DNA of 41,188 nucleotides from an uncultured Clostridia bacterium. Its GTDB lineage: Bacteria > Bacillota > Clostridia > Christensenellales > Borkfalkiaceae. The notes under the pieces were generated by a model. That model was given only the letters and a program-made list of their open reading frames with translations. It had not been told where the DNA came from and made no database searches. Positions 3,875-39,914 of the stretch are shown here, one piece after another. Position 1 is the first letter of the stretch, and each line of letters opens with the position of its first letter. Made by a program: the position numbers and the translations under genes. Location of the stretch: positions 1-41,188 of the forward strand of contig CAJGCN010000001.1 of assembly GCA_904501815.1 (NCBI GenBank). Direction: 5' to 3'.

Positions 3875-6800
3875 TTAAGCGAGCGAAATTCTATCGCTTA
3901 CTGAGCGCACGAACAAGCCTTTTTCTTCCCCAAGCGAAACGCAATCGTTTAAATACACGAAGAACTTATCCGACGGCTTTGCAATCCGCAACGCGCTCGA
4001 CACGATAATTAACAATTCGTCCATATACAGCGCGACCTTGTCTTCCAACGCACCGCGCACGAGCGCAATAATTTCGTACGGCGTATAGTCCGTTTCGTAT
4101 TTTCGAATAGGTTCGCCCGTTTCCACGCGGTATCGATCAAATCCCACCGTTTTATCCGTTTTGCGATAAAAGGTTGCGCCTACGAGCCGTTCGCTTTTAA
4201 AGCCGCACAACGCAATAAGCGCCTGCATACGCCCTTCCACTTTCACGCCGTATTTGGTAATTCCTAAGCTCGTCAAGCATCTTCTAACCAAAAACTCGTA
4301 GGAAATAGGCTCTTCCGCCAACACGATCGCTTTCAAACGGGCAAGTATTTCCCCGTCGTTTTCTCCCGACGTCACGAAATTCGCCGTTTCTTCCCTATTT
4401 TCAAGCTCCGCCGCCTTATACGCCTTTTTGCCCCTATTCAAGCCCGTACCGCCACGACGGTCCGCGCCCGTGAGTTTATCCAAAAGGTCTTTAATTTTCT
4501 TAATTTCCCGTTTGGGATTGTTATAATAATTGACGGAGAAAATTCGCGCAACGTTCCAATTATTGCGTTTAAGCGTTTGCACTTGCAATACGTTTCTATC
4601 CTTGATTGAGAAAGGAGTAGGCACGTCACACATCACGGCGAGAATAAACCTGTGCTTATTCTTCGGGTCAAGCACCGCCACGTCGATTTTAAAATCGGAT
4701 ACGCCCACGTCGTATCGACAATCGTAGCCATACGAAGAAAGCTCTTCCGCGAGATATTTTCCAATCCCTGCTTTTTTCGACGGAAGTTTTCCCGACGGAA
4801 TTGCGAGCGTAGTTCTGCCCTTTTCGGCAAATTCAAGGAACGCTTTTAAACCCGCCACCCCACGCGAGTTGGTTTTGGAAATATCGATCATTGCCCCCGT
4901 CATAGACGCAAACACAAGCATTTCTTCTCTCGCTCTCGACACCGCAACGTTGAGTCTTCGCCAGCCGCCCGCTTGATTTAACGGCCCAAAATTCAAGGAA
5001 ATTCTACCGAGCTTATCAGGTCCGTAGCATACGGAGAATAAAATCACGTCCCGTTCGTCCCCCTGTACGTTTTCCAAGTTCTTGATAAACAACGGTTCTT
5101 CTCTATCGTACGCCGCGCTTTCTAAACGTTTTTCGATAATGAGCGCGGAGAGTTTACGCTCGATATATTCCTTTTGCGCGTTGCTGAACGTGACGATACC
5201 CATGCTTGATTTACGGCAAGCAGGGTCGGCAAGTCTACGTAAAACTTCTTTGATAAGCTCGTCAGCTTCCACTTTGTTGCGCTTGGTAAAGCCCCTGTCG
5301 TATAACCCGTCTTCCACGAAGATAAATTTGACTTTGCTATCGGGCGCGTCAGGCGAAGGGAACGTACAAAGCCCGTTGCCGTAATACATCAAATTCGAGA
5401 AAGCAATCAAGCTTTCGTGCTTACTTCTATAATGCCACGTCAAATGCCGTTCGGGAATTCCAAGCGCTAAGCAATCGTCTAAAACGCTTTCCATATCTTC
5501 GTTTTCTAAATTGTCTTCGTCTACGTAGGTGGTAGAGAAGAAAGTAGTCGGCGGGAGTTGTTTGGGATCGCCTACGACGATTGCCGATTTCGCACGGGCA
5601 AGCGAGCCGATCGCTTCTGCCGTTGGCATTTGCGAAGCTTCGTCGAAAATCACAAGATCGAACAATCCGCTTTCCGCTTGCAAATACTGTGAAACGGTAA
5701 TCGGGCTCATCAACATACACGGCGCAAGCACCTTGCTGAGTTCGGGAATTTCTTCAAAGAGCTTTCTAAGCCCCATACCCCGCAAATTATTCTTAGACAG
5801 CCGTTGAAAATTCGCAAGCTCTAAGCTCAAACTTCCGTCCGTTGACGGAGTAGGCACACGCTCTATCAATTTCGCGCGAATATGTTCTTTGGAAAGCTTG
5901 GAAAACTCGTCTAACGACAAGCGAAGCGCTTCCGCGCCTTCTTCCGTGATCGCCGCCGAAAAACGGGATAATACGGGGTCGAGCGGGATATTCGTCTGCA
6001 AGAAATTTTTGTAAATATTCTTCTCGAAACTATCGAGTATATTTTCGCTCGAAACCGACCCGTTTTCCAGCGCGTCGGTAATAAACGTAAGCCCCGCTTC
6101 GTCTAATTTTTCCGCCGTAGCCTTATACATACACCAGTTCGCAAGCATATCTACGTTGTCGATCAACGCGCCTGCTTTGGTCGTGTAATATTCCAAAACG
6201 TCTTCTTCGGGGATAAGCCTTGCATCCGCTTTCGTAATTTTCAAAAAGCTTTCTTCCGCTACGCTAAAACTATCCAGCGAGCGCACCAAGCCTTGCAAGA
6301 CGGGTACGCTATACCCGTTTGCCGCGCGAATACACATACTGTTAAAGCTATCGGGGTTATAATCCATAAATACCGAAGCGCAAGTTTCGTGCAGTTTATA
6401 TAAATCGGAAAGGAAGTTTTTGCGCGCGTCGAAATAATCCACCCGACCGAACGCATAGGTGAAATACTTGGAAAGACGGGTGCAAGATTTAATCCGTTCC
6501 ATTGCTTCAAAAATATCGTAGACGGTTTCCAAGTGCTTATACACGTCGTCGCCCAGCTCTTGAAGGGAAACTTTGGAAAGCTTTTTCACTACGGACAGCA
6601 CCGTTTTTTCTTTGGTATAGTCCGTTTCGCCCGTATCCAACCATTCGCCAAGCTTTTTATATTCTTTTTGAATATCTACGAGCTTTTTAAAATGCTTAAA
6701 ATAACTTTCTAACGACAAATCCAACCGTTTATTCGCATTGAAAAACACGAAAAACTCTTCTTCGTTTTCCTTGAAATATTTATTCAAATTTCCGCTTGCT

Positions 6801-9523: not shown

Positions 9524-9592
9524 ACTTAAAACCACCGTAGGGTAAAATTTTCCATCATTTGCAATACTTACCTATATTATAGCCGAAAACGT

Positions 9593-20085: not shown

Positions 20086-20436
20086 ATGAACGTTAAAAGA
20101 GGCGAATTATACTACGCGGATTTATCCCCCGTAGTGGGTAGCGAGCAAGGGGGAATACGCCCCGTACTCGTGGTGCAAAACGACGTGGGCAATAAATATT
20201 CCCCTACGATTATTGCGGCTGCCGTCACGAGCAAAATCAACAAAGCGCGCCTGCCCACGCACATTGAACTCCCTTCCGCCTACGGGCTTGCAAAAGACAG
20301 CGTAATTTTATTAGAACAAATCCGAACGCTGGATAAACGCCGTTTAAAAGAACGCATAGGAGAGCTTCCGCCCGCTACGATGAACCGCGTAAACCGCGCT
20401 ATTTTAATCAGCTTAGGCTTTCCCGTAAACAATTAA
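20086..20436 (+). CDS. mazF: MazF/PemK-family endoribonuclease toxin, EndoA (NdoA/YdcE)-like
   Basis: [29 protein letters not shown] and [20 protein letters not shown] closely resemble B. subtilis EndoA. The RBS is AGAGG. Confidence 0.9.
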
Positions 20437-20480
20437 CGTTTGCGGGATTTTCGTCGAAAAAGCCCTTGTATTTTCAACCT

Positions 20481-20514
20481 TTTACAAATTTCGCCCGCAA
20501 AAAAGTTATATACT
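20481..20514 (+). promoter_or_regulatory. Candidate spoIIE promoter with an over-long spacer
   Basis: TTTACA (20481-20486), a 22-nt spacer, then TATACT (20509-20514). The palindromic box TTTTCGTCGAAAAAG lies at 20448-20462, just upstream. Confidence 0.3.
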
Positions 20515-20548: not shown

Positions 20549-22846
20549 ATGACTTCATCAAAACGTACGACGTCTACGCAAGTATTCGTATACGCGGCAG
20601 TACTTGCGGCGTTTTTATTTCTCTTCCACGTGGGAGATTACGGCGAGCCTTACGGGCTTGCTTTTCTTTTCGCCTGTCTTTCAGCGGAGCTATCTTTCGG
20701 CGTTTGCGGGTTATTTTATTTATTCTCCGTCGCCATTACGGGTCAATGGATTCTTACCCTGCTCTATTTCGGCCAAGCTCTGCTCTTATGCCTTTCTTTC
20801 GCCTTTAAACGACGTCTTACTCCGCCCAAACTACATATCCTTTCCTTTTCCGCCTTATTCCTTTCGCTTGCTTCGTACGTGCTGTTCGCCCCCTTTTCAG
20901 GCTATGAAACACCGTTCGGGATTTCCTTTTTCGAACAATCGCTTACGCAAAGCATTTTACTTTCCGCGTTCGTCTTTCTCTTAGCCGCCGCCTTTACGGT
21001 TGCGCTCAAAGCCCTGTTGCAAAAAGCCTTAAAATGCCGTTTGAAAACGGAAGAAATTCTCTTTTCCGTGCTTTTATTCCTGCTCGTCGGCGTAGGTATT
21101 TGCCGTTTTTTAAGCGTTGCCGTCTACACGGGCGTGGCATTCTTTTTACTTTTGATTATCTCCTACGTAAGCAAAGATGCCACCGCGCTCGTCGGTGCGT
21201 TCGTTTTATCCCTGCCGTCTGCGCTAATCGGCGGAATTTCCCCCGAACGTTTTTTCGTTTACGGAATTGCCGTCGTCCTTTTCGCAAAATCGGGTAGACT
21301 TGCGCAAACCTGCTCCGCCCTTATCGTCTTTTTCTACTACGGCTTTCTCGACGGCTTATACGATTTTCCCCTTTCCATGCTCGTGCAAAGCGTACTTTCT
21401 ACCGTCATTCCCTGTCTTTTATTCCTGTTATTGCCTGCGCCTTTATTGCACCGCTTAGAAGACGATTTGGTGTTTTATCGGGAAAAACATCTTTCCCGCA
21501 TTGCAATCAACCGCAACCGCGCGGCAATCGGAGAACAGCTCTTTGAGATTTCCGCCGTATTTAGAGAAATACAAACCACTTTCAACTCACTCGGCTCGTC
21601 CCAAGCGGAAGATGAAGCCAAAGAATATATCCGCAATCTCGTTTGCGATAAGGTCTGCAAAAAATGCCCGCAATATTCTCAGTGCGCGGCGGAAAACGTG
21701 CAACGTCATCTCGTTTCGCTCGTTTCCGTCGGTTGCTTGAAAGGCAAAGTCAGTTTAATCGACGTACCTGGCGCAATGGCGCAAAAATGCGTTAATCAAA
21801 GCGGAATACTCTACGCGGTCAACCGTCAGCTCGTAGAGTTTAAAAACTATATGTTAGAAGCGGAAAACGCCGCGACGGGGCGAGCGCTCCTTGCCAAGCA
21901 AGCGCAGGGCGTAAGCGAAATTTTGCGTGGGATTGCCTTAGAGCAAAGCGAGCCGTTGCTTTTGCATAAAGAAAAAGAACGCGCGCTCAGTTTAGCCCTT
22001 TTAAAAGCAGGGGTCGTTTGCTCGGAAGTGCTTATCTACGGCGAAGAACGGGAACTTACGCTTTCTTTAATTACGTTCGGAAACGCATCCGTCAAAAAGA
22101 TTGCCGACGTTTCTTCGGCTTTTTTCGGCTCGCCTATGATTATTTCTAAAAGACTTCCTTTAAGCAAGGAAAAATACTGCTGTATTTTGCGCAAAAAACC
22201 TTATTTCGACGCGGCGTTCGGCGTGGCTTGCGCCACTAAATACGGCGAAACGGCAAGCGGGGACACCCATTCCGTCACGAGAATAGACGAACGGCGGTTT
22301 ATGGTCGCGCTCTCCGACGGTATGGGAAGCGGGGAATACGCGCGCAAAATTTCCGAAAGCACCATTTCCCTGCTCGAAAGCTTTTACCGCGCGAAAATGC
22401 CGTCTGCTTTAATTCTTTCCACCGTCAACAAACTGCTCGCTTTCAACCGCGAAGAAAGCTTTGCTTGCGTGGATATCGCCGTCGTGGACTTGGACAGCGG
22501 GGAAGCCAACGTCGTGAAAATCGGCTCACCGACGGGCTTTATTTTATCAGGCAACGCTTTGAAAATTCTCGACAGCGCCACCCTACCGCTCGGAATTCTC
22601 GATTCACTCCATCCCGAAGCGTCTACCTACGTATTAAAAGAAAACGACGTACTCTTGTTTTTAAGCGACGGGATTACTTCGGCGTTCGGCTCAACCGCCG
22701 ACTTGTATGAAAACTTAAAAAAGCTCCCCGCATCTAACCCGCAAGAGCTTGCCGACTGTATTTTGCAAAAAGCCATAGAAGAATACGGCAATCTTTCCAA
22801 AGACGATATGACCGTCGTTGCAGTACGCCTTTTCAAAGCCTCCTAA
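20549..22846 (+). CDS. spoIIE: Stage II sporulation protein E (polytopic membrane region plus PP2C phosphatase)
   Basis: About 10 N-terminal TM segments are followed by a C-terminal PP2C domain with SGDTHSV, ALSDGMGSG, LFLSDGI and DDMTVVAVRL. The RBS is GGAGG. Confidence 0.88.
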   Translation: MTSSKRTTSTQVFVYAAVLAAFLFLFHVGDYGEPYGLAFLFACLSAELSFGVCGLFYLFSVAITGQWILTLLYFGQALLLCLSFAFKRRLTPPKLHILSFSALFLSLASYVLFAPFSGYETPFGISFFEQSLTQSILLSAFVFLLAAAFTVALKALLQKALKCRLKTEEILFSVLLFLLVGVGICRFLSVAVYTGVAFFLLLIISYVSKDATALVGAFVLSLPSALIGGISPERFFVYGIAVVLFAKSGRLAQTCSALIVFFYYGFLDGLYDFPLSMLVQSVLSTVIPCLLFLLLPAPLLHRLEDDLVFYREKHLSRIAINRNRAAIGEQLFEISAVFREIQTTFNSLGSSQAEDEAKEYIRNLVCDKVCKKCPQYSQCAAENVQRHLVSLVSVGCLKGKVSLIDVPGAMAQKCVNQSGILYAVNRQLVEFKNYMLEAENAATGRALLAKQAQGVSEILRGIALEQSEPLLLHKEKERALSLALLKAGVVCSEVLIYGEERELTLSLITFGNASVKKIADVSSAFFGSPMIISKRLPLSKEKYCCILRKKPYFDAAFGVACATKYGETASGDTHSVTRIDERRFMVALSDGMGSGEYARKISESTISLLESFYRAKMPSALILSTVNKLLAFNREESFACVDIAVVDLDSGEANVVKIGSPTGFILSGNALKILDSATLPLGILDSLHPEASTYVLKENDVLLFLSDGITSAFGSTADLYENLKKLPASNPQELADCILQKAIEEYGNLSKDDMTVVAVRLFKAS

Positions 22847-22855
22847 CCGTACTTC

Positions 22856-22895
22856 AAAAAAGACGGATGAGTGTTTTTTCTCGTCCGTCTTTTTT
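22856..22895. terminator. Bidirectional rho-independent terminator shared by spoIIE and the convergent membrane-protein operon
   Basis: An A6 run is followed by stem GACGGATGAG (22862-22871) / CTCGTCCGTC (22880-22889), which contains one G-U pair, then T6. Confidence 0.8.
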
Positions 22896-22901
22896 GTAAG
22901 T

Positions 22902-24494
22902 TTATTCTTGCGTTTCTTCTGCGCTTTCTTCTTGCGCAGGAGTTTCTTCTTTTTTTACCTTTTGCAACTGGAATACTCTTCCGCAAGCCGCGCAACGATA
23001 ACCAGGCGCGCCTTGTTTAATTTTGAGCTTCTTCGCGCAATACGGGCAATTGATTTCACGGGTTTTGCCGTTCGGCTCCCATTCAAAGGTCAATCCGTCC
23101 CATTCGTTGAACGCAGGCGTTTCGGGTTGCGCCGTTTCTTCTTTCTTTTCCGTTTGCACGGGGGCAGGTACGGGCGCAGGCATAGGGATAGGCGCAGGCA
23201 CAGGAACGGGCATAGCCGTTTCGGGCGTTTGATACATAACAGGCTGACCGTTTTGCATAGGCATTACCATTACGGGTTGACCGTTGGGTTGCATAAACAC
23301 GCCGGGACGGGTAATGCATTGCAAAGGAATACGGTAGGAAGGTTGCACGGGCTGTTGCGACGCTTCTTGGGCTTTGGGTTCAACACACGCGTTGCGTACT
23401 CTATCGTTGTTTTTCGTTTTGATAACAAGGTCTAAAACAAACGCAAGAAGCGAAGCAGGCACGATTAAAAGAATCCACCACGTCCATTCGCTAACGGCAA
23501 AATAATGCACGAAGAACCACGCAAGCGCGTTGACAGCCACAAACATAGAGAACACGCGGTAATTCTTCATACCCTTTGCGTTCATACCGTCGATAGAATA
23601 CTCCGTCGCGTGGAAAGCGTGATTATATAACACGAACGTCCAAACGAGCAAAAGCACTTGTAAAACGGTGTCTAAGAGTAATTTTATATTTCCCGTAAGA
23701 TACGAAAATCCGCTCACGGAAACGCCCGTCAACGTAGCGTTCAAGTTGGTTGCTTTTGCAAAGAAGAACGCAATTGCGACCACGACGAGAATATGTATTA
23801 AATTACGGAAGAAATACGCCGAAACTTTCGAAGAACGCTTATATTCAACGACCGTTTCTTCAATGTCGTAGCGACCGATTTTCGCAGAAACGGGTCCTGC
23901 AATCAAGCGCACCAACACGCCCACGCCGATCGGAAGATATACGAGCGCAGAAAACTCCGCTTTCGCAACCGCATAGATAAGCAAAAGGCCGAACAGAACG
24001 GTGATAAGCGTGCCCGAGAAACAATTCCCAAGCTTTTGCATTGCGTAGAAATTGCGGTTATACCCTTTATTACGCGTGGGGTTTTTCTTAGAAAGACCGC
24101 TGAGCTTGGAAAAGCTTACGAGCAAATTAATAAACCCAACGAGAAGCATAAGCGCGTACAACGCGCAAACAGGCAACAGCACGAGCGAGTTATAATTCAA
24201 ACCGCCGAGATTAAAAACGGGGTTTAAAAAGGTGAGAATGGAAACTTCCCAAGCCTTGTTATCCGCCGTTTGAACCGTTAAAAACGGAACGAACAAAAAC
24301 GCAAACAATGCAATCGAGCCAATCAAATACAAAACTCCCGCGAACTTCGCCTTTGCGTGCGCCTTTTTAATACGGCGTTTCATAGACGAAATTTCTTCGC
24401 AGTTTTCGCTATTTATAAACGCGCCCGCCGCCGCGTCTTGTTGCTCAGTCGAAACGGGTTGCCCGTCATTTTTTAAGCGTTTGTCTTTCTTCAT
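22902..24494 (-). CDS. Uncharacterised ~8-TM membrane protein, paralog 1, with Met/Pro/Gln-rich tail, PxP linker and C-terminal zinc ribbon
   Basis: It shares these motifs with the ORFs at 24819-26123 and 26265-27419: GYNRNFYAMQKLGNCFSGT, FFRNLIHILVVVAIAFFF and HATEYSIDG. The zinc ribbon is CPYC..17..CAAC (22983-23048). The ATG at 24494 follows AAAGGAGAG. Confidence 0.8.
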   Translation of the reverse strand: MKKDKRLKNDGQPVSTEQQDAAAGAFINSENCEEISSMKRRIKKAHAKAKFAGVLYLIGSIALFAFLFVPFLTVQTADNKAWEVSILTFLNPVFNLGGLNYNSLVLLPVCALYALMLLVGFINLLVSFSKLSGLSKKNPTRNKGYNRNFYAMQKLGNCFSGTLITVLFGLLLIYAVAKAEFSALVYLPIGVGVLVRLIAGPVSAKIGRYDIEETVVEYKRSSKVSAYFFRNLIHILVVVAIAFFFAKATNLNATLTGVSVSGFSYLTGNIKLLLDTVLQVLLLVWTFVLYNHAFHATEYSIDGMNAKGMKNYRVFSMFVAVNALAWFFVHYFAVSEWTWWILLIVPASLLAFVLDLVIKTKNNDRVRNACVEPKAQEASQQPVQPSYRIPLQCITRPGVFMQPNGQPVMVMPMQNGQPVMYQTPETAMPVPVPAPIPMPAPVPAPVQTEKKEETAQPETPAFNEWDGLTFEWEPNGKTREINCPYCAKKLKIKQGAPGYRCAACGRVFQLQKVKKEETPAQEESAEETQE

Positions 24495-24519
24495 AGTTCT
24501 CTCCTTTAAAAAGCATTTC

Positions 24520-24548
24520 GATATGCGCCCGAATTTTGGACGCATATC
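24520..24548 (-). promoter_or_regulatory. Intra-operon hairpin between the 85-aa ORF and paralog 1
   Basis: The stem is GATATGCG (24520-24527) / CGCATATC (24541-24548) with a 13-nt loop. T-rich sequence follows a few nt later on the minus strand. Confidence 0.3.
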
Positions 24549-24559
24549 GCTTTTTCTTT

Positions 24560-24817
24560 TTATTTCTTTCTCTTTTTATCCGGCACGACGATAGGCACGG
24601 TTTCTTGCGCTACGGGCATCATAGGCTGACCGCTCGCAATCAAAGGCATAATCATCACGGGCGTACCGTTAGGTTGCATATACACCCCTGCTTGAATAGG
24701 TCCGCGATTAACCCCCATAGAATAATTAAGGGGAGCAGGTTGTTGATACGCTCTGTATTTATCCGCATCAATCATCATTTCGTAATCGTCTTTCGATTTA
24801 AAAACCTTTCTCTTCAT
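24560..24817 (-). CDS. 85-aa soluble protein that mimics the cytoplasmic tail of the flanking membrane paralogs
   Basis: The RBS GAGGAGGG precedes it, and it starts 1 nt after the paralog 2 stop. GVYMQPNGTPVMIMPLIASGQPMMP matches GVFMQPNGQPVMVMPMQNGQPVM of paralog 1. Confidence 0.6.
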   Translation of the reverse strand: MKRKVFKSKDDYEMMIDADKYRAYQQPAPLNYSMGVNRGPIQAGVYMQPNGTPVMIMPLIASGQPMMPVAQETVPIVVPDKKRKK

Positions 24818-24818
24818 C

Positions 24819-26123
24819 TTAATATCCCTCCTCGTCCACGAAATAGTATTCCACAGGCGCGGCGCTTTCGTAGTTCGGCGCGTTGTGCGACATAGGCATT
24901 ACCATATATTGCTGACCGCCGTAGGTGATAACACCGGGTTGCGTGAAGCAATGCAAGGGTACGCGACTGGTTTGGGGCATATTCGTAGGCACGTACTGCG
25001 CGTCGAATTCTTCCTTTCTTCTAATCGAGCCTTTTACTTTCGGGAAACGGCGCAAGCAACATTCCAAAATAAAGGATACGAAAGCGACTACCCCAAGCAA
25101 AATCGTTTGCAAGTTATCGCCAAAGCCTACGCCTTGAACGAAATATTCAAAGCACACGAGCCCTGCCGAAAGCAAGAAAATGAAGAACGTAAAGATACGG
25201 AAGTTATGCATACCGCTCGCTTGCGCGCCGTCGCGGTCAAATTCCGTCGAAGCCGTCGTGTGCTTAACGAGCACGAGCCAGCAAACGACGATAACAAGTT
25301 CGATAGCCGCCACGATTAACGCATTGATATCGTTAAGTATTCCTTTAAAGTCGCCCGTTGCGAACAAATCGGAAACGAACGCTTTAAGCGTGTTCATTTT
25401 CAAGAAGAAGAACGCGATACCCGCCACCGCCGCGATTTGGAACAAATTGCGAAGGAACACGGAAAATCTGCCGTATCTTCTCTTTTCTTCTTCCACACCG
25501 CCACGCGCCGTGAACAAGCTGACGTTTCCGCCTACGAGCCCGCACCAGAAGTGGAATAAAAATCCAACGCCAACTGCGATATAAGCCATTAACGTAAAGC
25601 TATATCCCGTAAGATACAATAAACAGCTAAAAAATACGACTGCGAAGAACGAACCAGAGAAAATTCTGCCGAGATCTTCCATTGCAAACGCGTTGCGGTT
25701 AAACCCGTACGTTCTGCTCGCTTTCTTTTTATACAGCCAACCAAACTTGCCAAAACAGCGGAAAAAGTTGATTAACAGCACGAGAAGCATAATCGTATAA
25801 ATCAACGGCTTAACCATAGGTTTAATCACTTCGAGCGTAAAGCCGTTTTTGATGTCAAGGAAAGGTTTCCAAAAGTTTGCCACCCAAAGATATTCGATTG
25901 CGCCCTTGTTGTCGTAGCTGAACATTCCCAAACACGCCAACGCAAGAAATGCAAGCGTACCGAAAAAGTAGAAAAATCCCATCCACTTTGCTTTGCCTTG
26001 CGCTTTTCTCACACGCTTACGCATATTCACAGGCGTCGTAGGAACGTGCTTTTGTTGTTTTACTGTTGGCGCACAACCGATATCCATACCGTAGTGTTGT
26101 TGAATCATTTGTTGATTCTTCAT
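24819..26123 (-). CDS. Uncharacterised ~8-TM membrane protein, paralog 2
   Basis: It carries the motifs YGFNRNAFAMEDLGRIFSGS, FLRNLFQIAAVAGIAFFF, HTTASTEFDRDG and the tail PLHCFTQPGVITYGGQQYMVMPM. The ATG at 26123 follows GGGAGGAG. The ORF-track start at 26237 adds an Arg-rich extension with no RBS. Confidence 0.8.
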   Translation of the reverse strand: MKNQQMIQQHYGMDIGCAPTVKQQKHVPTTPVNMRKRVRKAQGKAKWMGFFYFFGTLAFLALACLGMFSYDNKGAIEYLWVANFWKPFLDIKNGFTLEVIKPMVKPLIYTIMLLVLLINFFRCFGKFGWLYKKKASRTYGFNRNAFAMEDLGRIFSGSFFAVVFFSCLLYLTGYSFTLMAYIAVGVGFLFHFWCGLVGGNVSLFTARGGVEEEKRRYGRFSVFLRNLFQIAAVAGIAFFFLKMNTLKAFVSDLFATGDFKGILNDINALIVAAIELVIVVCWLVLVKHTTASTEFDRDGAQASGMHNFRIFTFFIFLLSAGLVCFEYFVQGVGFGDNLQTILLGVVAFVSFILECCLRRFPKVKGSIRRKEEFDAQYVPTNMPQTSRVPLHCFTQPGVITYGGQQYMVMPMSHNAPNYESAAPVEYYFVDEEGY

Positions 26124-26264
26124 AGTTATTCTCCTCCCATTTTTTATGTGTATTTTTCTTATCCGTACTTCTTTGCGCTCACGCGCTCCCCCGCCGTATC
26201 GACAAAACCACCTCCCGACTATTTTTTTTCTTTTCAAAAATTTCGTCTTTCGTGGTTAATTTTT

Positions 26265-27419
26265 TTAATCGTCGTAGTATTCGTAAGTTTTAGGTTTTTC
26301 TTGCTCCACAGGCGGTACGAATTCCACGCCGCCTACGTATCTTCCGCCAAGCAAGCTATCCGATTCAATTTCGTCCGAGCGATCGGTATCGTCGGGATAT
26401 TTTCTCAAACATACTTCGATAATAAACGAAAGTAAAGCTACGATAGCGATATACACGCCGTCCAAGCACCAAACGCCTGCAAACAAATATTCCGCTACTA
26501 CCCCACCGATTGCCGTTAAAAAGGTTAAGAAAGTGAAAGCGCGGAAAGTATTTCTGCCCGATGCTTCAAAGCCTTCGCGGTCGTATTCGGCAATACCCGT
26601 CGCGTGCTTGATAAGGGGCAACAGCCACACGAACACTAAAAAGAACGCAAGGGGCGCAACAAGTTCTCTCCATTTTCCTAAAAGACCCGCAAATTCCGTT
26701 TCCCGCAAAATATTCGCAAGCTTTAACACCTGCGCCGAACGCACGAGAAAAAGTCCGACACCCGCCACCGCTACGATTTGCAACAGGTTGCGAAGAAAAG
26801 GAACGAACACGCACCCGCGCCGTTTTTCTTCGTGCAACGTTCCGCCTTCAACGGCAAACAAGGAAATCCCCCCGCCGATTAACCCGCCGAGAAAATGCAC
26901 GAGCGCGCCAACGCCCAACGCAATATATAAGTAGATAGGCTGGGTTGCTATGGCAGGTTCTTTGGAAAGTAAATAAATCAAAAAGCTAAACGCTACGAGC
27001 GTATGAAAAGACCCTGAAAACAATTTGCCGAGCGATTCCATTGCGTAAACGTTTCTGTTATACCCGTTGGAACGGCTGGGTCTTCTTTTAAACAGCCACC
27101 CGAGTTTCTTTAAACTTCTTAAAAAATTGCAAACCACCGTGAGTAAAATCAGCGCGTAGAACACGGCAACCGTCAAATCGAGAATAATCGCAAAGGTAAT
27201 TCCTTGCAGATTTTTCAGAGCCGTGAAGCTTTGCCAAAAGGTAAGCACCCATAAATTTACTCCGCCGATAGAAAGCATAGGAAAAAACGCGAGAACCGCA
27301 AGCGCGATAATCGCCAAAAAATACAAAATACCCACTACCGCTGCACGCGCGTGCGCATTTTCTATTTTCCGCTTAAACGCCGCTCTGTTTTGTGGCGTTA
27401 TCGTTTGAGTGTAGTCCAT
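26265..27419 (-). CDS. Uncharacterised ~8-TM membrane protein, paralog 3 (no Met/Pro tail; acidic C-terminus)
   Basis: It carries the motifs NGYNRNVYAMESLGKLFSGS, FLRNLLQIVAVAGVGLF and HATGIAEYDREG. The RBS is AGGGAGAGAG. Confidence 0.8.
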   Translation of the reverse strand: MDYTQTITPQNRAAFKRKIENAHARAAVVGILYFLAIIALAVLAFFPMLSIGGVNLWVLTFWQSFTALKNLQGITFAIILDLTVAVFYALILLTVVCNFLRSLKKLGWLFKRRPSRSNGYNRNVYAMESLGKLFSGSFHTLVAFSFLIYLLSKEPAIATQPIYLYIALGVGALVHFLGGLIGGGISLFAVEGGTLHEEKRRGCVFVPFLRNLLQIVAVAGVGLFLVRSAQVLKLANILRETEFAGLLGKWRELVAPLAFFLVFVWLLPLIKHATGIAEYDREGFEASGRNTFRAFTFLTFLTAIGGVVAEYLFAGVWCLDGVYIAIVALLSFIIEVCLRKYPDDTDRSDEIESDSLLGGRYVGGVEFVPPVEQEKPKTYEYYDD

Positions 27420-27582
27420 ACTCTCTCCCTTTTTTGCTTTCCGCTTTTTGCGGATTTGATTATTTCTATTATACGATAAACTTTTTCAAGGAAAATTGCC
27501 CTTTTAGAAAAATCTTTGCTTTTTTCGTCGAAAAAGACGATTTTAGTATCCTATTAAATGTATAAAATCTCTAATTTATTCT

Positions 27583-27611
27583 ATTATACAGTATTTAGTA
27601 GTAATTGTCAA
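27583..27611 (-). promoter_or_regulatory. Consensus sigma-A promoter for the three-paralog operon
   Basis: On the minus strand: TTGACA (27606-27611), a 17-nt spacer, then TATAAT (27583-27588). It lies about 165 nt upstream of the ATG at 27419. Confidence 0.6.
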
Positions 27612-27660: not shown

Positions 27661-28209
27661 TCAGTCTTTTCTCTTGCGCGCTTTGCCGAATTTTTGTTTA
27701 TACGCCGCAATGCATTTGTTGATGATGTCCACCGCTTCGTCGCGATGACAAATTTCTTTCACCGTCGTTTGTTTATGTTCGAGCGATTTATACACTTCAA
27801 AAAAGTGCATCATTTCGTCAAAGACGTGTTTAGGAAGTTCGTGTACGTCGTAATAATTATTATAGGTAGGGTCGCCAAAGGGAATAGCGATAATCTTTTC
27901 ATCCAAAGACTCCCCGTCTATCATCTTAATCACACCGATAGGATAGCAAGATACGAGCGTCATAGGATAAATGGTTTCTCCACCTAAAACGAGTACGTCG
28001 AGCGGGTCGCCGTCGTCGGCGTAGGTACGGGGAATAAACCCGTAGTTTGCGGGGTAGACCGTCGACGTATACAAAATACGGTCGAGTTTTAAAAGCCCCG
28101 TTTCTTTGTCAAGCTCGTACTTCGCTTTACAGCCTTTCGGGATTTCAATAAGTGCTTCGAAATTTTTCGCAGTAATGCGTTCGGGAGCAATGTCGTGCCA
28201 AATGTTCAT
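27661..28209 (-). CDS. ppa: Family I inorganic pyrophosphatase
   Basis: Motifs IEIPKG..KYELDKETG, YPANYGFIPRT..DGDPLDVLVL and DEKIIAIP are present. The real start is ATG 28207-28209 behind AAGGAG. The ORF-track TTG at 28332 adds an unsupported 41 aa. Confidence 0.92.
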   Translation of the reverse strand: MNIWHDIAPERITAKNFEALIEIPKGCKAKYELDKETGLLKLDRILYTSTVYPANYGFIPRTYADDGDPLDVLVLGGETIYPMTLVSCYPIGVIKMIDGESLDEKIIAIPFGDPTYNNYYDVHELPKHVFDEMMHFFEVYKSLEHKQTTVKEICHRDEAVDIINKCIAAYKQKFGKARKRKD

Positions 28210-28361
28210 AAATAAATATACTCCTTTTCCTCTTGTTAGTTCTATTTTAGCATATTTTTTTAATTTCCGCAAGATTATCATGGGGGAATTTCCCGTATTT
28301 TCAAGTTTTACCGAGAAAAAAATTTTTTCCAAAACATTTTCTTATTTTTAGCGAAAAAGCT

Positions 28362-28411: not shown

Positions 28412-28502
28412 GCAGAAGTACCCAAGAGGCTCAAGGGGCTCCCCTGCTAAGGGAGTAGTATGGGAAACCGTAGCACGAGTTCGAATCTCGTCTTCTGCGC
28501 CA
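28412..28502 (+). tRNA. tRNA-Ser (anticodon GCU), CCA encoded
   Basis: The acceptor stem is GCAGAAG/CTTCTGC. The anticodon stem is CTCCC/GGGAG with loop CTGCTAA. A long variable arm and the T arm ACGAG-TTCGAAT-CTCGT are present, followed by G-CCA. Confidence 0.9.
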
Positions 28503-28963: not shown

Positions 28964-29932
28964 TTATGTAAATAAATCATCTAACACATTCGCCGCCGCA
29001 ATATCTCGCGATTGAAAACAATAGGCGTAAATATCACTTGTCGTGCTAGGTCTTGCGTGTCCTGCACGTTTCGCCACCGTCATCAACGGCACGTTTTCCA
29101 TCAATTGCAACGTTATATTCGTATGGCGCAAGCTTCTTAGCGTCACTCGTGGAATCTTGGCTTCTTTCATTAAGTCATCCATCCAACGATTCGTTGTTTG
29201 CGGATATATTGCCGTTCCACATTCACTAACAATCAATTTATTTCCTGCCTTCCAAGCCTCCCCGTGTTCCTTTTTCTTATTTTCTCTCCAAACAATATAT
29301 TCGCTCAAACAGTCCACAAGAATTTTCGGTATTGAAAAAGTTCGTACCAACGTTTGATTTTTCGGCTCTTTTTCTATTAAGCCGAACCCATTAACCACTA
29401 CTCTTGAACGACGTACCGTTATCGTTTGATTATTTAAGTCTATATCGGATAATTCCAACCCACAAATTTCCCCACGTCGCAACCCTGTTAAAAGAACGAT
29501 TAACGCTATCGTCCTTTTCTTTATATCTTTACCCTCAACCAAAAACCTATAAAACGCTAACGAATTTTCTTCCGATAAATGTTCGGGAATATTTTTTATT
29601 TGTTCGGGATAATCAAGATATTCTCTCGTAGCGAAATTATGCTCTATTAATCTCAACTTCTTCGCATATGTTAAAATCCCTTGAACCGTCACTTTTATCT
29701 TTCGAATCGTTTGATATGCGTATTTTTGATAAATAATTTGAATATCAAACAATTCATCCAACTTTTTTTCCATATTTTTCGCGACTTTTTCTGCACTTTC
29801 CAATCTAACGTTTTTTCCTTCCAACATAGCCTTCAAACTCACATCGCTTACCCCGAGCACTTTGGCTATTTTATATCTTGCAACTTTATATTTACTCAAT
29901 AACTCGTTTAATCGCTTCTCTTTTACTTTCAC
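28964..29932 (-). CDS. Tyrosine site-specific recombinase/integrase with an N-terminal XRE-like HTH
   Basis: Catalytic-domain motifs are LLTGLRRGEICGL, LRSLRHTNIT and AGHARPSTTSDIYAY. The N-terminal segment KIAKVLGVSDVSLKAMLEGKN is HTH-like. Confidence 0.88.
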   Translation of the reverse strand: MKVKEKRLNELLSKYKVARYKIAKVLGVSDVSLKAMLEGKNVRLESAEKVAKNMEKKLDELFDIQIIYQKYAYQTIRKIKVTVQGILTYAKKLRLIEHNFATREYLDYPEQIKNIPEHLSEENSLAFYRFLVEGKDIKKRTIALIVLLTGLRRGEICGLELSDIDLNNQTITVRRSRVVVNGFGLIEKEPKNQTLVRTFSIPKILVDCLSEYIVWRENKKKEHGEAWKAGNKLIVSECGTAIYPQTTNRWMDDLMKEAKIPRVTLRSLRHTNITLQLMENVPLMTVAKRAGHARPSTTSDIYAYCFQSRDIAAANVLDDLFT

Positions 29933-36377: not shown

Positions 36378-39300
36378 TTATTTAACGAGCTTCAATAAAA
36401 TAGATTGTTGCCGTAAAATTCCCACCGAAATTGCGGAAATCTTTCCGTTTTTCATACGCTTTCCTATCTGTTCACAACCGTAAACACCTACTGCATTACA
36501 ATACGTATTTTCAGGGAGCTCCACCTTTACCCGAATGGGTTTTTCATAAGTAGCCCCGCCCAAATCTTTGGAATAATCGACGAGCAATAACACGTCTTCT
36601 CCCCGTTCATTCACAAAAGGCGTTATACCGCAACGTTTATCCGCTATATATCCCGAAGTAGAAAGTTTACGCATACAATCCGTAATCGTACTTTCCAACA
36701 ACGCACTAATGTTGTACGCCGTATTATACACCGAATGTTTCACGCTATCTATTCCTACTTGACAAATAGGAGCGTTGAGTAGAAGGGTATTCTCTCTGCG
36801 TATTAAAATCGGCGTGTTATCATCCGCCCAAAGCAACGCTTCTCCGTCAACCGCGTCGTAATACAATTCTACTTCGTAAGGAGTGATGTATTCCTTAGAG
36901 CCTCCGTCCGTTAAATAGGTCAAGCGTTTTTTACGACGGTTGCGTTTTACGCCAAATACGTCTTCTAAGCCGTCCACGTTATGTACGGCTATAAGCGGTA
37001 TACCCTCTTTATGCAATGCGCGCAATGCCTCGATTGATTTCTTATCCGCTTTGGTAAGGGAGGGTAAAATCACCATATCGCAGTTTTCTTTGGTTAAAGA
37101 TTGCAAGCGGGCATAATCTATCGCCCCGCTAACGGGAAGCCCTCCTTCTCGCAATGCTTTATACATATACGCTAAACCCGAATCGCTGATATTATGTGCA
37201 GCGTGTCCGCTGTATCCGTAATCCCCACCAGAATATTCGTCATAGCACTTGTTTTTGTCAAATCTATCGTCGTCACTGGTAATTTCATATACGAGTACGC
37301 TTCCCTTTTTGGGGGCAACAGGAATATTTTCCATTGCCTTTCCCCAAGCATATAGAAATTCGTTTAGCTTATCCGCCACGCTGTTATATAAATATTCTGG
37401 GAACAACATAATCCCATAATCTTTCCAATAACTATACGCTTGTTTTTCCGAACGATAGTGCGGGGTATTGAAAATATATTCGTATACTTGCGTCACGCAC
37501 ATATACGGCTTACAAGTAAACAAACCAACAGGCGGTTTTGCAGGGCAAATTGCGGTGTCTGGACAACCTTCACGCCAGCCGTCATATAATTCTGGAAACA
37601 AACGTATGCGCGGGTCTAAAAATTTCGCCGTAGTCAATGCCCACGCCCCACGAGTTGTCGTATATCCACACACGTGCGGATAATCTTCAAATTGATAATA
37701 CCCGTCCGTATGTTCGTATGCTTTCGTTGCGTCCACGCCGTACCAACGGGAAGAATATGCCCCTATGTACGGCGAAATATATACATTCCAATGCCCGTAA
37801 GTAGTACGCTTTACCTTTGGATTAACTCTTTTTACTTTTAACCATTCCTTTCGTTCACATTCGGCAATAATCGGTAAGCAATAGTCTATAAATTCACCAC
37901 AGGCAAGCGACATAAAGTTCTGATAATCTTCCAACGTAAACCTTTCTTGTACGTTTATCAATCCTGCTTTTTTTCGAATATCTTCGTGTAAGCATAAAAA
38001 CTCTTCCAACATATCGAGCATTTGATTGCGGACAACCCGATAGATGAAAAAGTCGTATCGCCCATACAACCTATCTTCTCTGCGCCCGCCGTTTTTAGAA
38101 TACACGTAATCGGCATTTTGCGTAATTCCCCAATCCAACGTCGCATCAGAAATCAAATCAGCCCTACTCACGCAACGGCCATTCATCCATGCAAATATTT
38201 TTCTTTTGAACAGGGGATAAATTTCCCAAGCGCGACGCTCTTCTGCTACGTTAGGCAAAATCAACGCGATATCGACGTAATGTTGTACGTTGCAATCGGG
38301 CATCGGAAACCAAAAGTCAGGCACCGCATTGATTCCCCCCAAAGGCGCGCCGTCCCCCACGTGCGAATGGAATAATCCACTTGCTTCTTGCGGAGATATA
38401 TCGCTGTTTTTATCAATAACTTCAAACGCCGAACGGTGTTCTTTGACGAGTTCGCCGAAATAATACACTTCCACTGACAAATGATATACGCCCAAAGCAA
38501 GCGGAGATATTTTTACCTCATACGCCTTAAAAGGGTTTACTGGATATTCATTAGGGGTTTGTTTTTGAAAATACTCCAATTCTCGAATAGGATTAAAGAA
38601 CGCGTCTTGCAAAATAAATCTTACCGAAATATCTTCTACGGTATGTATCGTGCGAATATCAACGTAAAACGCCGCTTCCTGCGTGGTATAAAAATAGTGA
38701 TTGCCTTGCAAATGGCGTATAATATCGGCGCGATTATAAGCCGTTTCGGGAATCATTTCGGCTAATTCTTCATTCAGCGGCGAACGAACAGATACGGTAA
38801 ATTCCATATCTAAGGATTCCCCGTTATAAATTAAATTCCCTTCTTTATCATAAATAAACTCGCGTGCGCCCTTGTACAATTCCGCATACATTTGCTCAAA
38901 CTCATTGTATCCTACGCACAACTGTTCAATTTCACCCAAATTTTGCAATAAAAACGTACCGGAAAACGGCTTTTCTTTTACCTTACAAACAGCACGATAG
39001 GTTTGCAGTACTCCGTCTATTGCCGCTAATTCACCTCCATTGTCGGCATTTACTTTCGACGTATAATTCATGTCTAAAACACGGAACGCACCGTTTTCAA
39101 TATACAAGCGTTTACTATTGTTAATTTTGAAATACAGCCCCGTGAATTCTTCATAAATCGTCGCCCAACAAGCTCCGTGTACTTTCTCGGCAGGCGGACG
39201 GGCATACAAGCCGTCGGCGAAGGTATATTCGACCTGCGAGATATTTTCCCCAATGTCAGACACGGTTAAATGTAAGCTATACGGCAAAACCCCACCGTTA

Positions 39301-39914
39301 TCACGGGGAATAATAAGGTGATATTCTCCTACTTTCTTAGGCTCAATTTCTTGCGTTTGTAAGCGTAAATCGGAAATGAAAATTTCACGGAATGCATTTT
39401 CTCTCGTAAAACCGATTTTTCCTTTCTTCTTTTCAACGGGGCATTCCAACACACACTCGCCCATTTGACAACGCATTTTTTTGCCATCTACTATGAGATC
39501 TACTCCGTATTTTTTATCGTATTCACGAGTAAACGTATATTCTTTTCTTTCTAATAATTGAGTATGTATTCCCACGATTTCATACAAGGCGATTGCCGTC
39601 CCGCCCTTCGACAAAGCGGAAATTTCGAGTTCGTATCCCGTGCGGTTTTGTCTGTCATACCCAAATACTACGCCAAAACTTTCATTTACGTTCACGCATC
39701 CGTTTTTATAATGCATTAAATCAAAATGCAACGTAAACGTCGAAATGCTCGGCACGTTGATATACGCTCTTGCTCCGCTAAAAGTCAAAGCATATCCTTG
39801 CTCTTTTACCGTACCGTTTAAATGATAGTAAGGATTATCTTTTTCCACTTCAAGAGAATAGGGTTGATTATTGTCGTCGTGATTATATAAACCATTTTTA
39901 AATTCAAATTCCAT
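36378..39914 (-). CDS. 1178-aa protein of unknown function (possible novel carbohydrate-active enzyme)
   Basis: It is a long uninterrupted ORF inside a tightly packed operon. The N-terminus looks like a jelly-roll domain. The segment MVILPSLTKADKKSIEALRALHKEGIPLIAVHNVDGLEDVFGV looks like a class I glutamine-amidotransferase-like or GH42-trimerisation-like module. I recognised no catalytic signature. Confidence 0.6.
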   Translation of the reverse strand: MEFEFKNGLYNHDDNNQPYSLEVEKDNPYYHLNGTVKEQGYALTFSGARAYINVPSISTFTLHFDLMHYKNGCVNVNESFGVVFGYDRQNRTGYELEISALSKGGTAIALYEIVGIHTQLLERKEYTFTREYDKKYGVDLIVDGKKMRCQMGECVLECPVEKKKGKIGFTRENAFREIFISDLRLQTQEIEPKKVGEYHLIIPRDNGGVLPYSLHLTVSDIGENISQVEYTFADGLYARPPAEKVHGACWATIYEEFTGLYFKINNSKRLYIENGAFRVLDMNYTSKVNADNGGELAAIDGVLQTYRAVCKVKEKPFSGTFLLQNLGEIEQLCVGYNEFEQMYAELYKGAREFIYDKEGNLIYNGESLDMEFTVSVRSPLNEELAEMIPETAYNRADIIRHLQGNHYFYTTQEAAFYVDIRTIHTVEDISVRFILQDAFFNPIRELEYFQKQTPNEYPVNPFKAYEVKISPLALGVYHLSVEVYYFGELVKEHRSAFEVIDKNSDISPQEASGLFHSHVGDGAPLGGINAVPDFWFPMPDCNVQHYVDIALILPNVAEERRAWEIYPLFKRKIFAWMNGRCVSRADLISDATLDWGITQNADYVYSKNGGRREDRLYGRYDFFIYRVVRNQMLDMLEEFLCLHEDIRKKAGLINVQERFTLEDYQNFMSLACGEFIDYCLPIIAECERKEWLKVKRVNPKVKRTTYGHWNVYISPYIGAYSSRWYGVDATKAYEHTDGYYQFEDYPHVCGYTTTRGAWALTTAKFLDPRIRLFPELYDGWREGCPDTAICPAKPPVGLFTCKPYMCVTQVYEYIFNTPHYRSEKQAYSYWKDYGIMLFPEYLYNSVADKLNEFLYAWGKAMENIPVAPKKGSVLVYEITSDDDRFDKNKCYDEYSGGDYGYSGHAAHNISDSGLAYMYKALREGGLPVSGAIDYARLQSLTKENCDMVILPSLTKADKKSIEALRALHKEGIPLIAVHNVDGLEDVFGVKRNRRKKRLTYLTDGGSKEYITPYEVELYYDAVDGEALLWADDNTPILIRRENTLLLNAPICQVGIDSVKHSVYNTAYNISALLESTITDCMRKLSTSGYIADKRCGITPFVNERGEDVLLLVDYSKDLGGATYEKPIRVKVELPENTYCNAVGVYGCEQIGKRMKNGKISAISVGILRQQSILLKLVK

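Follow-up and report, generated by a model that had tools for sequence, protein, structure and literature searches.

An undescribed family of eight-helix membrane proteins in tandem array beside a pyrophosphatase gene of uncultured Clostridia

Three paralogous membrane-protein genes, named A, B and C, are arrayed on the minus strand of a 41,188-nucleotide (nt) contig stretch from an uncultured Clostridia bacterium, with a small gene between B and C. We call the whole stretch the window and its own locus W; related loci are named L001, L004 and so on. By the tests run here, the products of A, B and C appear to belong to a small, lineage-restricted and previously undescribed family of polytopic membrane proteins. 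The deep conserved neighbour of the array is a soluble pyrophosphatase gene, not spoIIE, which stands convergent to the array in the window. We tentatively read the array as encoding an abundant, oligomeric and transporter-like membrane complex of vegetative cells and not a sporulation machine, a reading to which we give somewhat less than an even chance.

Paralogy, topology and range of the family

The four open reading frames (ORFs) of the array lie exactly where a preliminary description of this DNA had placed them, each with its own Shine-Dalgarno sequence (GGGAGAGAG, GGGAGGAG, GAGGAGGGA and AAGGAGAG; Table 1). Longer alternative starts exist for B (TTG at 26237) and C (ATG at 24545), and a Shine-Dalgarno sequence is present only at the starts chosen in that description. 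For a selection test, the window genes were compared with the orthologous loci of three other species. In the closest ortholog pair, the ratio of non-synonymous to synonymous substitution rates (dN/dS) takes values of 0.154 (A), 0.095 (B), 0.087 (small gene) and 0.156 (C), with 0.114 for spoIIE and 0.035 for PGI as comparison; synonymous divergence (dS) is saturated, at 0.8-3, even in this closest available pair. Because they are held under purifying selection (dN/dS 0.09-0.16), the four ORFs are real genes.

The three large proteins were aligned pairwise by BLASTP, giving 39% identity over 363 residues for A and B (E 2e-78), 30% for A and C (E 2e-43) and 32% for B and C (E 7e-48). On these alignments A, B and C are true paralogs, with a similarity far beyond chance and stronger than the identity at motif level to which the preliminary description had limited it. 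All four of the motif blocks listed there are present, and only the spacing of the last had to be corrected, to H-(A/T)-x-x-x-x-E-(Y/F)-x-x-x-G. The view of an old, maintained triplication is borne out, as the orthologs of A, of B and of C are each monophyletic across six species with saturated synonymous sites. In a neighbour-joining tree of 71 family proteins from non-redundant loci, the copies group largely by array position; the three ortholog groups of the window's clade follow the same species order with A and B as sisters, and independent lineage-specific duplications are seen in L007, L010 and L032. Twenty-eight positions are at least 85% conserved across the family, of which A keeps 28, B 27 and C 26, so that none of the three is a degenerate copy.

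Hydropathy, two AlphaFold models and the positive-inside rule agree on eight transmembrane (TM) helices, the approximate number first proposed. The model of A has a predicted local distance difference test score (pLDDT) of 76.5, and that of C, for which an alignment of 149 sequences was supplied, reaches 83, with a core above 90. Averaged over the 149 members, the count of Lys and Arg residues (K+R) is 9.7 in the N terminus and 7.4, 3.8 and 3.6 in loops 2, 4 and 6, and it is 2.3, 0.6, 1.3 and 0.7 in loops 1, 3, 5 and 7. The bias of the N terminus and of loops 2, 4 and 6 places both termini on the inner side (N-in, C-in), and the zinc (Zn) ribbon at the C terminus of C is therefore placed in the reducing cytoplasm.

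The conserved residues are concentrated on the same side of the membrane. Of 48 conserved positions, 23 fall in the cytoplasmic loops, and variability is greatest in the outer loops. The conserved cytoplasmic blocks comprise NRNxxAM, with which the helix into TM3 begins, a beta-hairpin with E-x-x-R, RNLxQ where TM5 begins, KHA...E-Y...G behind TM6 and GMKNFR ahead of TM7. R200, R210, N211, N121, N123, E197, E278 and H272 are nearly invariant and lie on the cytoplasmic side. Within the membrane, TM1 and TM2 have conserved Tyr, TM4 a His in its G-x3-H-x3-G-x2-G motif and TM5 a Gln, and all of these polar residues sit in the inner half of the bilayer. This distribution suggests a polar cleft that opens to the cytoplasm or to the inner leaflet. 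A CPBP/Abi-type protease, prompted by an EEKRR stretch, was considered and rejected on the spacing, which is unlike EExxxR, on the location in a cytoplasmic hairpin and on the lack of a Pfam match.

No membrane-core match to Pfam, NCBIfam, PADLOC or PHROG was found for the four proteins and 17 family members; weak, generic and sub-threshold Zn-ribbon matches (Pfam, NCBIfam) came only from the C-terminal 40 residues of C. Profile searches of PDB sequences returned nothing but Zn-ribbon noise. HMMER against Pfam and Foldseek with AlphaFold models, both suggested in the preliminary description, gave no confident match to a characterised family and no significant Foldseek match, in agreement with its account of the family as unrecognised. 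A word-indexed search of 5.8 billion proteins yielded 19 relatives, all unnamed or 'hypothetical', and an exhaustive hidden Markov model search of 1.84 billion cluster representatives yielded 280 at E <=1e-3 and 208 at E <=1e-30, a small family confined to gut Clostridia resembling Candidatus Scatosoma. Among 185,579 species genomes, 25 loci were identified, all of them in Candidatus Scatosoma or unclassified Clostridia metagenome-assembled genomes (MAGs), and a metagenome scan contributed just three more short loci. The isolate names of the family-bearing genomes point to the animal gut (deer, sheep, faecal MAGs). The family was not found on IMG/VR viral contigs, GenBank phages or PLSDB plasmids.

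Chromosomal slot and array rules

The window genes were mapped onto 36 related loci by tblastn, and ten places were also examined gene by gene. The slot has a regular order, in which a pyrophosphatase gene is followed by 1-4 tandem family copies and then by ProRS or spoIIE; wherever upstream DNA is available, the gene next to the array on that side is the pyrophosphatase gene, in the same orientation. The homologs are thus found in one fixed slot and not as scattered singles, and many related species carry a single family copy. ProRS comes next after the array in most lineages (some 20 loci outside the window's clade). The adjoining, convergent position of spoIIE is confined to the A-B-S-C clade, named after the gene order with S for the small gene (W, L001, L004, L011, L013 and L014), and in L036 ProRS stands between the array and spoIIE. 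Because of this confinement the position of spoIIE is a local gene-order feature, and its proximity does not support the functional link that had been proposed. Compared with L007-L010 and L016-L036, the window's clade lacks ProRS at this place, where it normally follows the array, and has instead the extra gene for an 85-amino-acid (aa) protein. In L024 (1-2911), a second, inverted unit of pyrophosphatase and family gene lies beside the normal array.

The Zn ribbon follows an equally regular rule. All of the complete arrays (27/27) have exactly one copy with a C-terminal CxxC...CxxC Zn ribbon, always the last gene, and in single-copy genomes the sole family protein bears it; in a set of 166 retrieved family proteins, 77 have the ribbon. 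The CPYC-X14-CAAC segment of C is predicted by AlphaFold to form stacked hairpins (pLDDT ~88), and its metal binding is likewise a prediction. A Pro-centred motif of the preceding tail aligns in 121 of the 149 family members. The tails reach about 750 residues in some relatives (proteins up to 1146 aa), where P-x-x-V-N-V-P-K-Q-type repeats lead to the Zn ribbon; these long extensions hold nothing beyond Pro-rich repeats and the ribbon, so they give no functional clue. In P0126, P0102, P0059 and P0130, the tails consist of dozens of near-identical Pro-rich repeats (e.g. T-P-I-V-V-N-V-P-K-Q-A-K-A-E) or Gln/Ala-rich coiled-coil-like stretches, and they always end in a W-E-(I/V)-x-CPxC...YHRCPxC-x-K-V-F Zn ribbon.

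By hydropathy the 85-aa protein lacks TM segments, and it is homologous to the tail of C (BLASTP E 2e-11), with which it shares the motif GV(Y/F)MQPNGxPVM(I/V)MP. Judged by this homology, it is a free-standing copy of the cytoplasmic tail motif of C. All six A-B-S-C species have its gene, which is confined to their clade.

The constant presence of the pyrophosphatase gene brings in a different reading, the foremost of the alternatives though an unlikely one, in which the family proteins are a membrane enzyme or exporter coupled to pyrophosphate (PPi) metabolism. The Arg/Asn/His/Glu cluster would bind a PPi- or phosphate-bearing substrate, possibly lipid-linked, and the pyrophosphatase would remove PPi or supply phosphate. 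Besides the fixed upstream position, this reading can draw on the probable co-transcription of both genes in six species with a promoterless gap of 16-66 nt, on the inverted unit of L024, which shows that the pyrophosphatase and a family gene can duplicate together, and on the cytoplasmic location of all the nearly invariant Arg, Asn, Glu and His residues. However, the loci belong to one narrow lineage with pyrophosphatases 80-95% identical, in which the gene order may be inherited, and a separate strong promoter stands between the two genes in most loci. Furthermore, no sequence or fold similarity to polyprenyl-phosphate, PAP2, UppP, MraY or ANKH-type proteins was found.

Between these genomes the flanking proteins are 80-96% identical and the family proteins only 30-45%. 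This divergence, together with the copy number of 1-4, the variable outer loops and the independent duplications in L007, L010 and L032, could be taken as the mark of an arms race, with a fast-evolving surface array under host-parasite pressure acting as a phage receptor or decoy, or as a superinfection-exclusion or abortive-infection module. We regard this as the least probable of the readings considered. The dN/dS values of the array are near the 0.11 of spoIIE, and the non-synonymous rate of A is about 7-fold that of PGI, steady at three divergence levels (three species pairs), which fits clock-like vertical evolution under loose constraint and not allele swapping. The slot is also fixed among housekeeping genes, the conserved face is cytoplasmic, and the searches of PADLOC, PHROG, viral contigs, phages and plasmids found neither matches nor copies.

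Promoter, leader and the convergent spoIIE gene

The promoter of the array matches the consensus at 12 of 12 positions with a 17-nt spacer, as described previously, and both hexamers, TTGACA and TATAAT, are unchanged among six diverged genomes whose surrounding intergenic DNA is only about 49% identical. Of 29 loci, 20 have a perfect copy between the pyrophosphatase gene and the first gene of the array, and 3 more have an 11/12 match (TTGACT) there. In the remaining six loci, the gap between the two genes measures 16-66 nt and lacks a promoter; the array is therefore probably transcribed there by read-through from the pyrophosphatase gene. The consensus match suggests a vegetative sigma-A type promoter of maximal strength, which points to an abundant protein. 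It also argues against a sporulation-sigma type, although no scan was aimed at sporulation-sigma promoters. At the other end, the bidirectional terminator that had been noted as common to the array and spoIIE lies where C and spoIIE converge, between their stop codons. The RNA hairpin ahead of C is kept in W, L001 and L013, the three closest genomes, and is absent in L011 and L004; it may be an attenuator or a transcript-stability element that tunes the amount of C.

The leader matches no Rfam family, hence no known riboswitch or T-box; its length ranges over 22-185 nt in relatives, and no element is common to all lineages. It contains the 15-mer TTTTCGTCGAAAAAG, which occurs exactly twice in the window (0 expected by chance), the other copy lying upstream of spoIIE. 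The leader copy is kept in W, L001, L013 and L011 and is found neither in L004 and L014 nor in any other lineage, and a one-base variant, TTTTCGGCGAAAA, is kept upstream of spoIIE in L001 and L013. An RNA hairpin formed by TCGTC/GACGA around the box was rejected as a conserved element, being specific to W and not kept in L001, and the conserved element is therefore the DNA palindrome. Within the palindrome, cGTCGAA differs from the Spo0A core box at one of seven positions and keeps G2, C4 and G5. The core box is TGTCGAA, with protein contacts at G2, C4 and G5, and spoIIE is a Spo0A target in other organisms; in C. difficile, Spo0A binds DNA upstream of spoIIE (PMC3485338). The palindrome is thus 0A-box-like and hints at shared regulation of the array and spoIIE in this subclade only. 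There, one regulator, possibly Spo0A, would activate spoIIE and block the array promoter from a downstream site.

These signals bear on the interpretation first given to the array, that of a sporulation or envelope-remodelling machine tied to spoIIE and working at the asymmetric septum or the forespore membrane. The array and spoIIE are convergent and have a common terminator in six species, and the upstream box reported for both genes is indeed an identical, 0A-box-like palindrome in the two places, with related boxes in close relatives. The link to sporulation fails beyond the subclade, since the box is absent elsewhere, including L004 and L014. In most lineages ProRS follows the array and spoIIE lies elsewhere, and in L036 ProRS intervenes. 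The promoter is a perfect vegetative sigma-A promoter, the box lies downstream of it, a position that would fit repression over activation, and no sporulation family matches the four proteins. We therefore consider a sporulation machine improbable, though not the least probable of the alternatives.

Several further features of the window were recorded (Table 1). Upstream of spoIIE, an invariant TTTACAAATTTCG block and a TATACT -10-like hexamer are kept in five genomes, at a spacing of about 20-22 nt that is longer than the canonical 17. The spoIIE promoter of Bacillus subtilis also has an over-long spacer and is Spo0A-dependent. The SpoIIE protein of the window is divergent, with a score of 303.8 bits against an NCBIfam equivalog cut-off of 490.8, and fast-evolving, with 69-80% identity between close species and a dN/dS of 0.11-0.15. 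Between PGI and spoIIE lies a PemK/MazF-type toxin gene, whose product has 97-99% identity between species, compared with 91-97% for PGI in those species, and no plausible antitoxin ORF was found in the 180-nt gap upstream of it. The tRNA-Ser(GCT) gene just past the pyrophosphatase gene is followed by a tyrosine-recombinase gene, and TraG-like, TnpV and integrase genes stand at the same position in L001 (1-8590); the tRNA gene looks like an integration hot spot for mobile elements. A search of Pfam with the 1178-aa ORF of the window gave nothing at E up to 1e-3.

Table 1 Coordinates of the array, its signals and other features of the window.
Feature	Position	Strand	Details
Paralog A	26265-27419	-	384 aa, 8 TM, without Zn ribbon
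Paralog B	24819-26123	-	434 aa, 8 TM, without Zn ribbon
Small gene (S)	24560-24817	-	85-aa soluble protein; start 1 nt past the stop of B
Paralog C	22902-24494	-	530 aa: 8 TM core, acidic and Pro-rich tail, C-terminal Zn ribbon
Zn ribbon of C	22965-23063	-	residues ~478-510, CPYC-X14-CAAC
Sigma-A-type array promoter	27583-27611	-	TTGACA-17-TATAAT, 12/12 consensus positions
5' leader, promoter to gene A	27420-27582	-	~155-163 nt
Palindromic box TTTTCGTCGAAAAAG in leader	27522-27536	strandless	~+45 from the inferred start; putative operator
RNA hairpin between small gene and C	24519-24549	-	12-bp stem, -24.7 kcal/mol, z -5.5
Bidirectional intrinsic terminator of array and spoIIE	22855-22896	strandless	17-bp stem, A-run/T-run flanks
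Soluble family I inorganic pyrophosphatase	27661-28218	-	PF00719, E 6e-59
Second exact box copy	20448-20462	strandless	~90-100 nt upstream of the spoIIE start codon
spoIIE	20549-22846	+	PF07228 and PF19732 matches
spoIIE upstream region	20481-20514	+	TTTACAAATTTCG block and TATACT
PemK/MazF-type toxin gene	20086-20436	+	116 aa
tRNA-Ser(GCT)	28412-28502	+	
Tyrosine-recombinase gene	28964-29932	-	phage integrase family
ORF	36378-39914	-	1178 aa
Larger ORF	3875-9535		1886 aa

A transporter-like complex and its known analogues

In the vegetative complex that we prefer, transcription would start from the very strong sigma-A promoter, with read-through from the pyrophosphatase gene in some relatives. 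The products would form an oligomer, homomeric in single-copy species and composed of A, B and C in this genome. Such a hetero-oligomer is plausible, as each array has exactly one Zn-ribbon copy and all three paralogs keep the conserved residues. The working surface would be the conserved polar cleft toward the cytoplasm or inner leaflet, built of the NRNxxAM helix, the E-x-x-R hairpin, RNLxQ, H-A...E-Y, GMKNFR and the His of TM4, and the outer loops would be free to vary. One subunit per complex, the product of the last gene, would keep the acidic, Pro-rich tether and the Zn ribbon. By analogy with the Zn ribbons of LetA (see below), this ribbon and the tail-mimicking 85-aa protein may stabilise or regulate the assembly. 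The weakest step of the proposal is the function itself, a transport-like handling of a small polar or amphipathic molecule, possibly lipid-linked or phosphate-bearing, at the inner leaflet. At most, and in the subclade only, the 0A-box-like operator in the leader would shut the strong promoter when the same regulator turns on spoIIE.

Several points weigh against this proposal. The conserved charged residues could be structural salt bridges and not a substrate site. No internal repeat of 4+4 TM helices is supported, since hhalign gave a probability of 0.2% for the N-terminal against the C-terminal half. None of the Foldseek matches in the PDB is significant (E at least 0.09, global TM-score ~0.2). 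When the 149-sequence profile was compared by hhalign with LetA and with a LetA/PqiA alignment, only the Zn ribbon was matched, at 11% and 26% probability; the LetA/PqiA profile is shallow, as the LetA homologs gathered were close enterobacterial sequences only. A remote relationship of the TM core to a known family may still exist. An obligatory three-part machine is contradicted by the single-copy species, which show that one paralog suffices, and the pyrophosphatase linkage could be gene order inherited within one narrow lineage.

If the proposal is true, the array defines a cleanly delimited and very probably abundant membrane family without a detectable relative in curated families or solved structures, and a candidate for a new transporter or scaffold fold in uncultured gut Clostridia. 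Its genomic rules are regular, with a fixed pyrophosphatase slot, 1-4 tandem paralogs, one Zn-ribbon subunit and a near-invariant promoter, and this regularity makes it a test case for the change from homo-oligomer to hetero-oligomer via tandem duplication. The significance is limited by the fact that lineage-specific orphan membrane families are common in metagenomes, and the hosts are uncultured. Collectively, the weak spoIIE link gives way to pyrophosphatase coupling, a LetA-like architecture and repression through a 0A-box-like operator, all of which are testable.

Structure comparison relates the family, below significance, to known folds. With the first model, that of A, Foldseek returned GPCR and ABC noise from the PDB, with LetA absent, and nothing from BFVD. 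With the model of C, the top PDB match is LetA (9n8w_A; E 0.093, probability 0.57, TM-score 0.19-0.23). Claudin-15 (probability 0.82, E 0.51) and claudin-19 (probability 0.66) were also matched, below significance, with TM-scores of 0.43-0.46 (claudin-chain normalisation) across some 185 columns, and XKR8 is also among the top-ranked matches. The modelled N-terminal half of C runs in the order TM1, strand, strand, short helix, TM2, TM3, strand and TM4, an order compatible with the claudin/LetA module. Like the claudin/TARP/tetraspanin fold, this modelled half has four TM helices that run up and down, with beta-strands in outer loop 1 and a single strand in outer loop 2. The conserved residues of the array proteins face the cytoplasm, whereas it is the outer loops through which claudins act; the two are unrelated in sequence, and the match could span half of the protein only.

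These likenesses raise the reading of an abundant membrane scaffold or tether, an analogue of tetraspanins and claudins without transport, whose Pro-rich arm and Zn ribbon recruit a cytoplasmic partner (protein, ribosome or nucleic acid). The claudin-like match covers approximately one 4-TM module, the very strong promoter implies abundance, and the tails of P0126 and P0102, with their long repeats ending in the conserved Zn ribbon, and the wide occurrence of the tail motif would suit a recruiting arm. Nevertheless, a site would account for the conserved polar residues within the membrane (His, Tyr, Gln) and for the invariant charged cluster better than a scaffold does, and the fold match is non-significant. 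We judge a pure scaffold unlikely and place it behind a coupling to PPi metabolism. ZipA is a membrane protein with a flexible Pro/Gln-rich cytoplasmic tether that ends in a small binding domain, and C resembles it in the long, low-complexity, Pro-rich linker that joins a membrane anchor to a small folded terminal domain. The array differs from ZipA in that the anchor is a conserved 8-TM core with a putative site and the terminal domain is a Zn ribbon, and no homology was found.

The last comparison is with LetA. LetA/PqiA proteins (PF04403) are inner-membrane partners of MCE lipid-transport tunnels in Proteobacteria, and LetA belongs to the E. coli LetAB lipid transporter; it has two modules of claudin/tetraspanin-like fold, each opening with a cytoplasmic Zn ribbon, after which come four TM helices, an interfacial helix and a periplasmic sheet of three strands, and the modules are sometimes split between adjacent genes (PMC13017536). 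The array proteins differ in several respects. Their single Zn ribbon lies far at the C terminus after a long disordered tether, instead of one before each module, and only in the last gene of the array, and the two halves show no detectable internal repeat. Neither A, B and C nor 17 family members match PF04403 at E up to 1-10. At the ten places examined, the neighbours (pyrophosphatase, ProRS, spoIIE, PemK, PGI) include no MCE/MlaD family, and the tblastn map shows the same flanking genes at other loci, though no MCE query was included. The host belongs to the Bacillota (Clostridia) and not to the Proteobacteria, and presumably has no outer membrane as a lipid destination. The family may nonetheless be an MCE-independent counterpart of the LetA class in Bacillota, a Zn-ribbon transporter of tetraspanin/claudin fold with 1-4 paralogous subunits, one of them bearing the ribbon, whose cargo at the cytoplasmic membrane would be a lipid or a lipid-linked phosphate compound. 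We hold this more specific reading to be doubtful, ranking it behind a scaffold and ahead of a sporulation machine; if true, it would extend the LetA-type architecture beyond Proteobacteria and MCE systems. The likenesses are as follows: eight TM helices; a cytoplasmic CxxC-Xn-CxxC Zn ribbon, with n = 14 in C and 11-18 in LetA; an extracytoplasmic three-stranded sheet and short helix in the N-terminal four-helix half of C, as in a LetA module; a conserved polar surface toward the cytoplasm; and the possible encoding of modules by adjacent genes. In conclusion, on the sequence comparisons we place the array proteins outside the LetA/PqiA family and take LetA as their closest known analogue.

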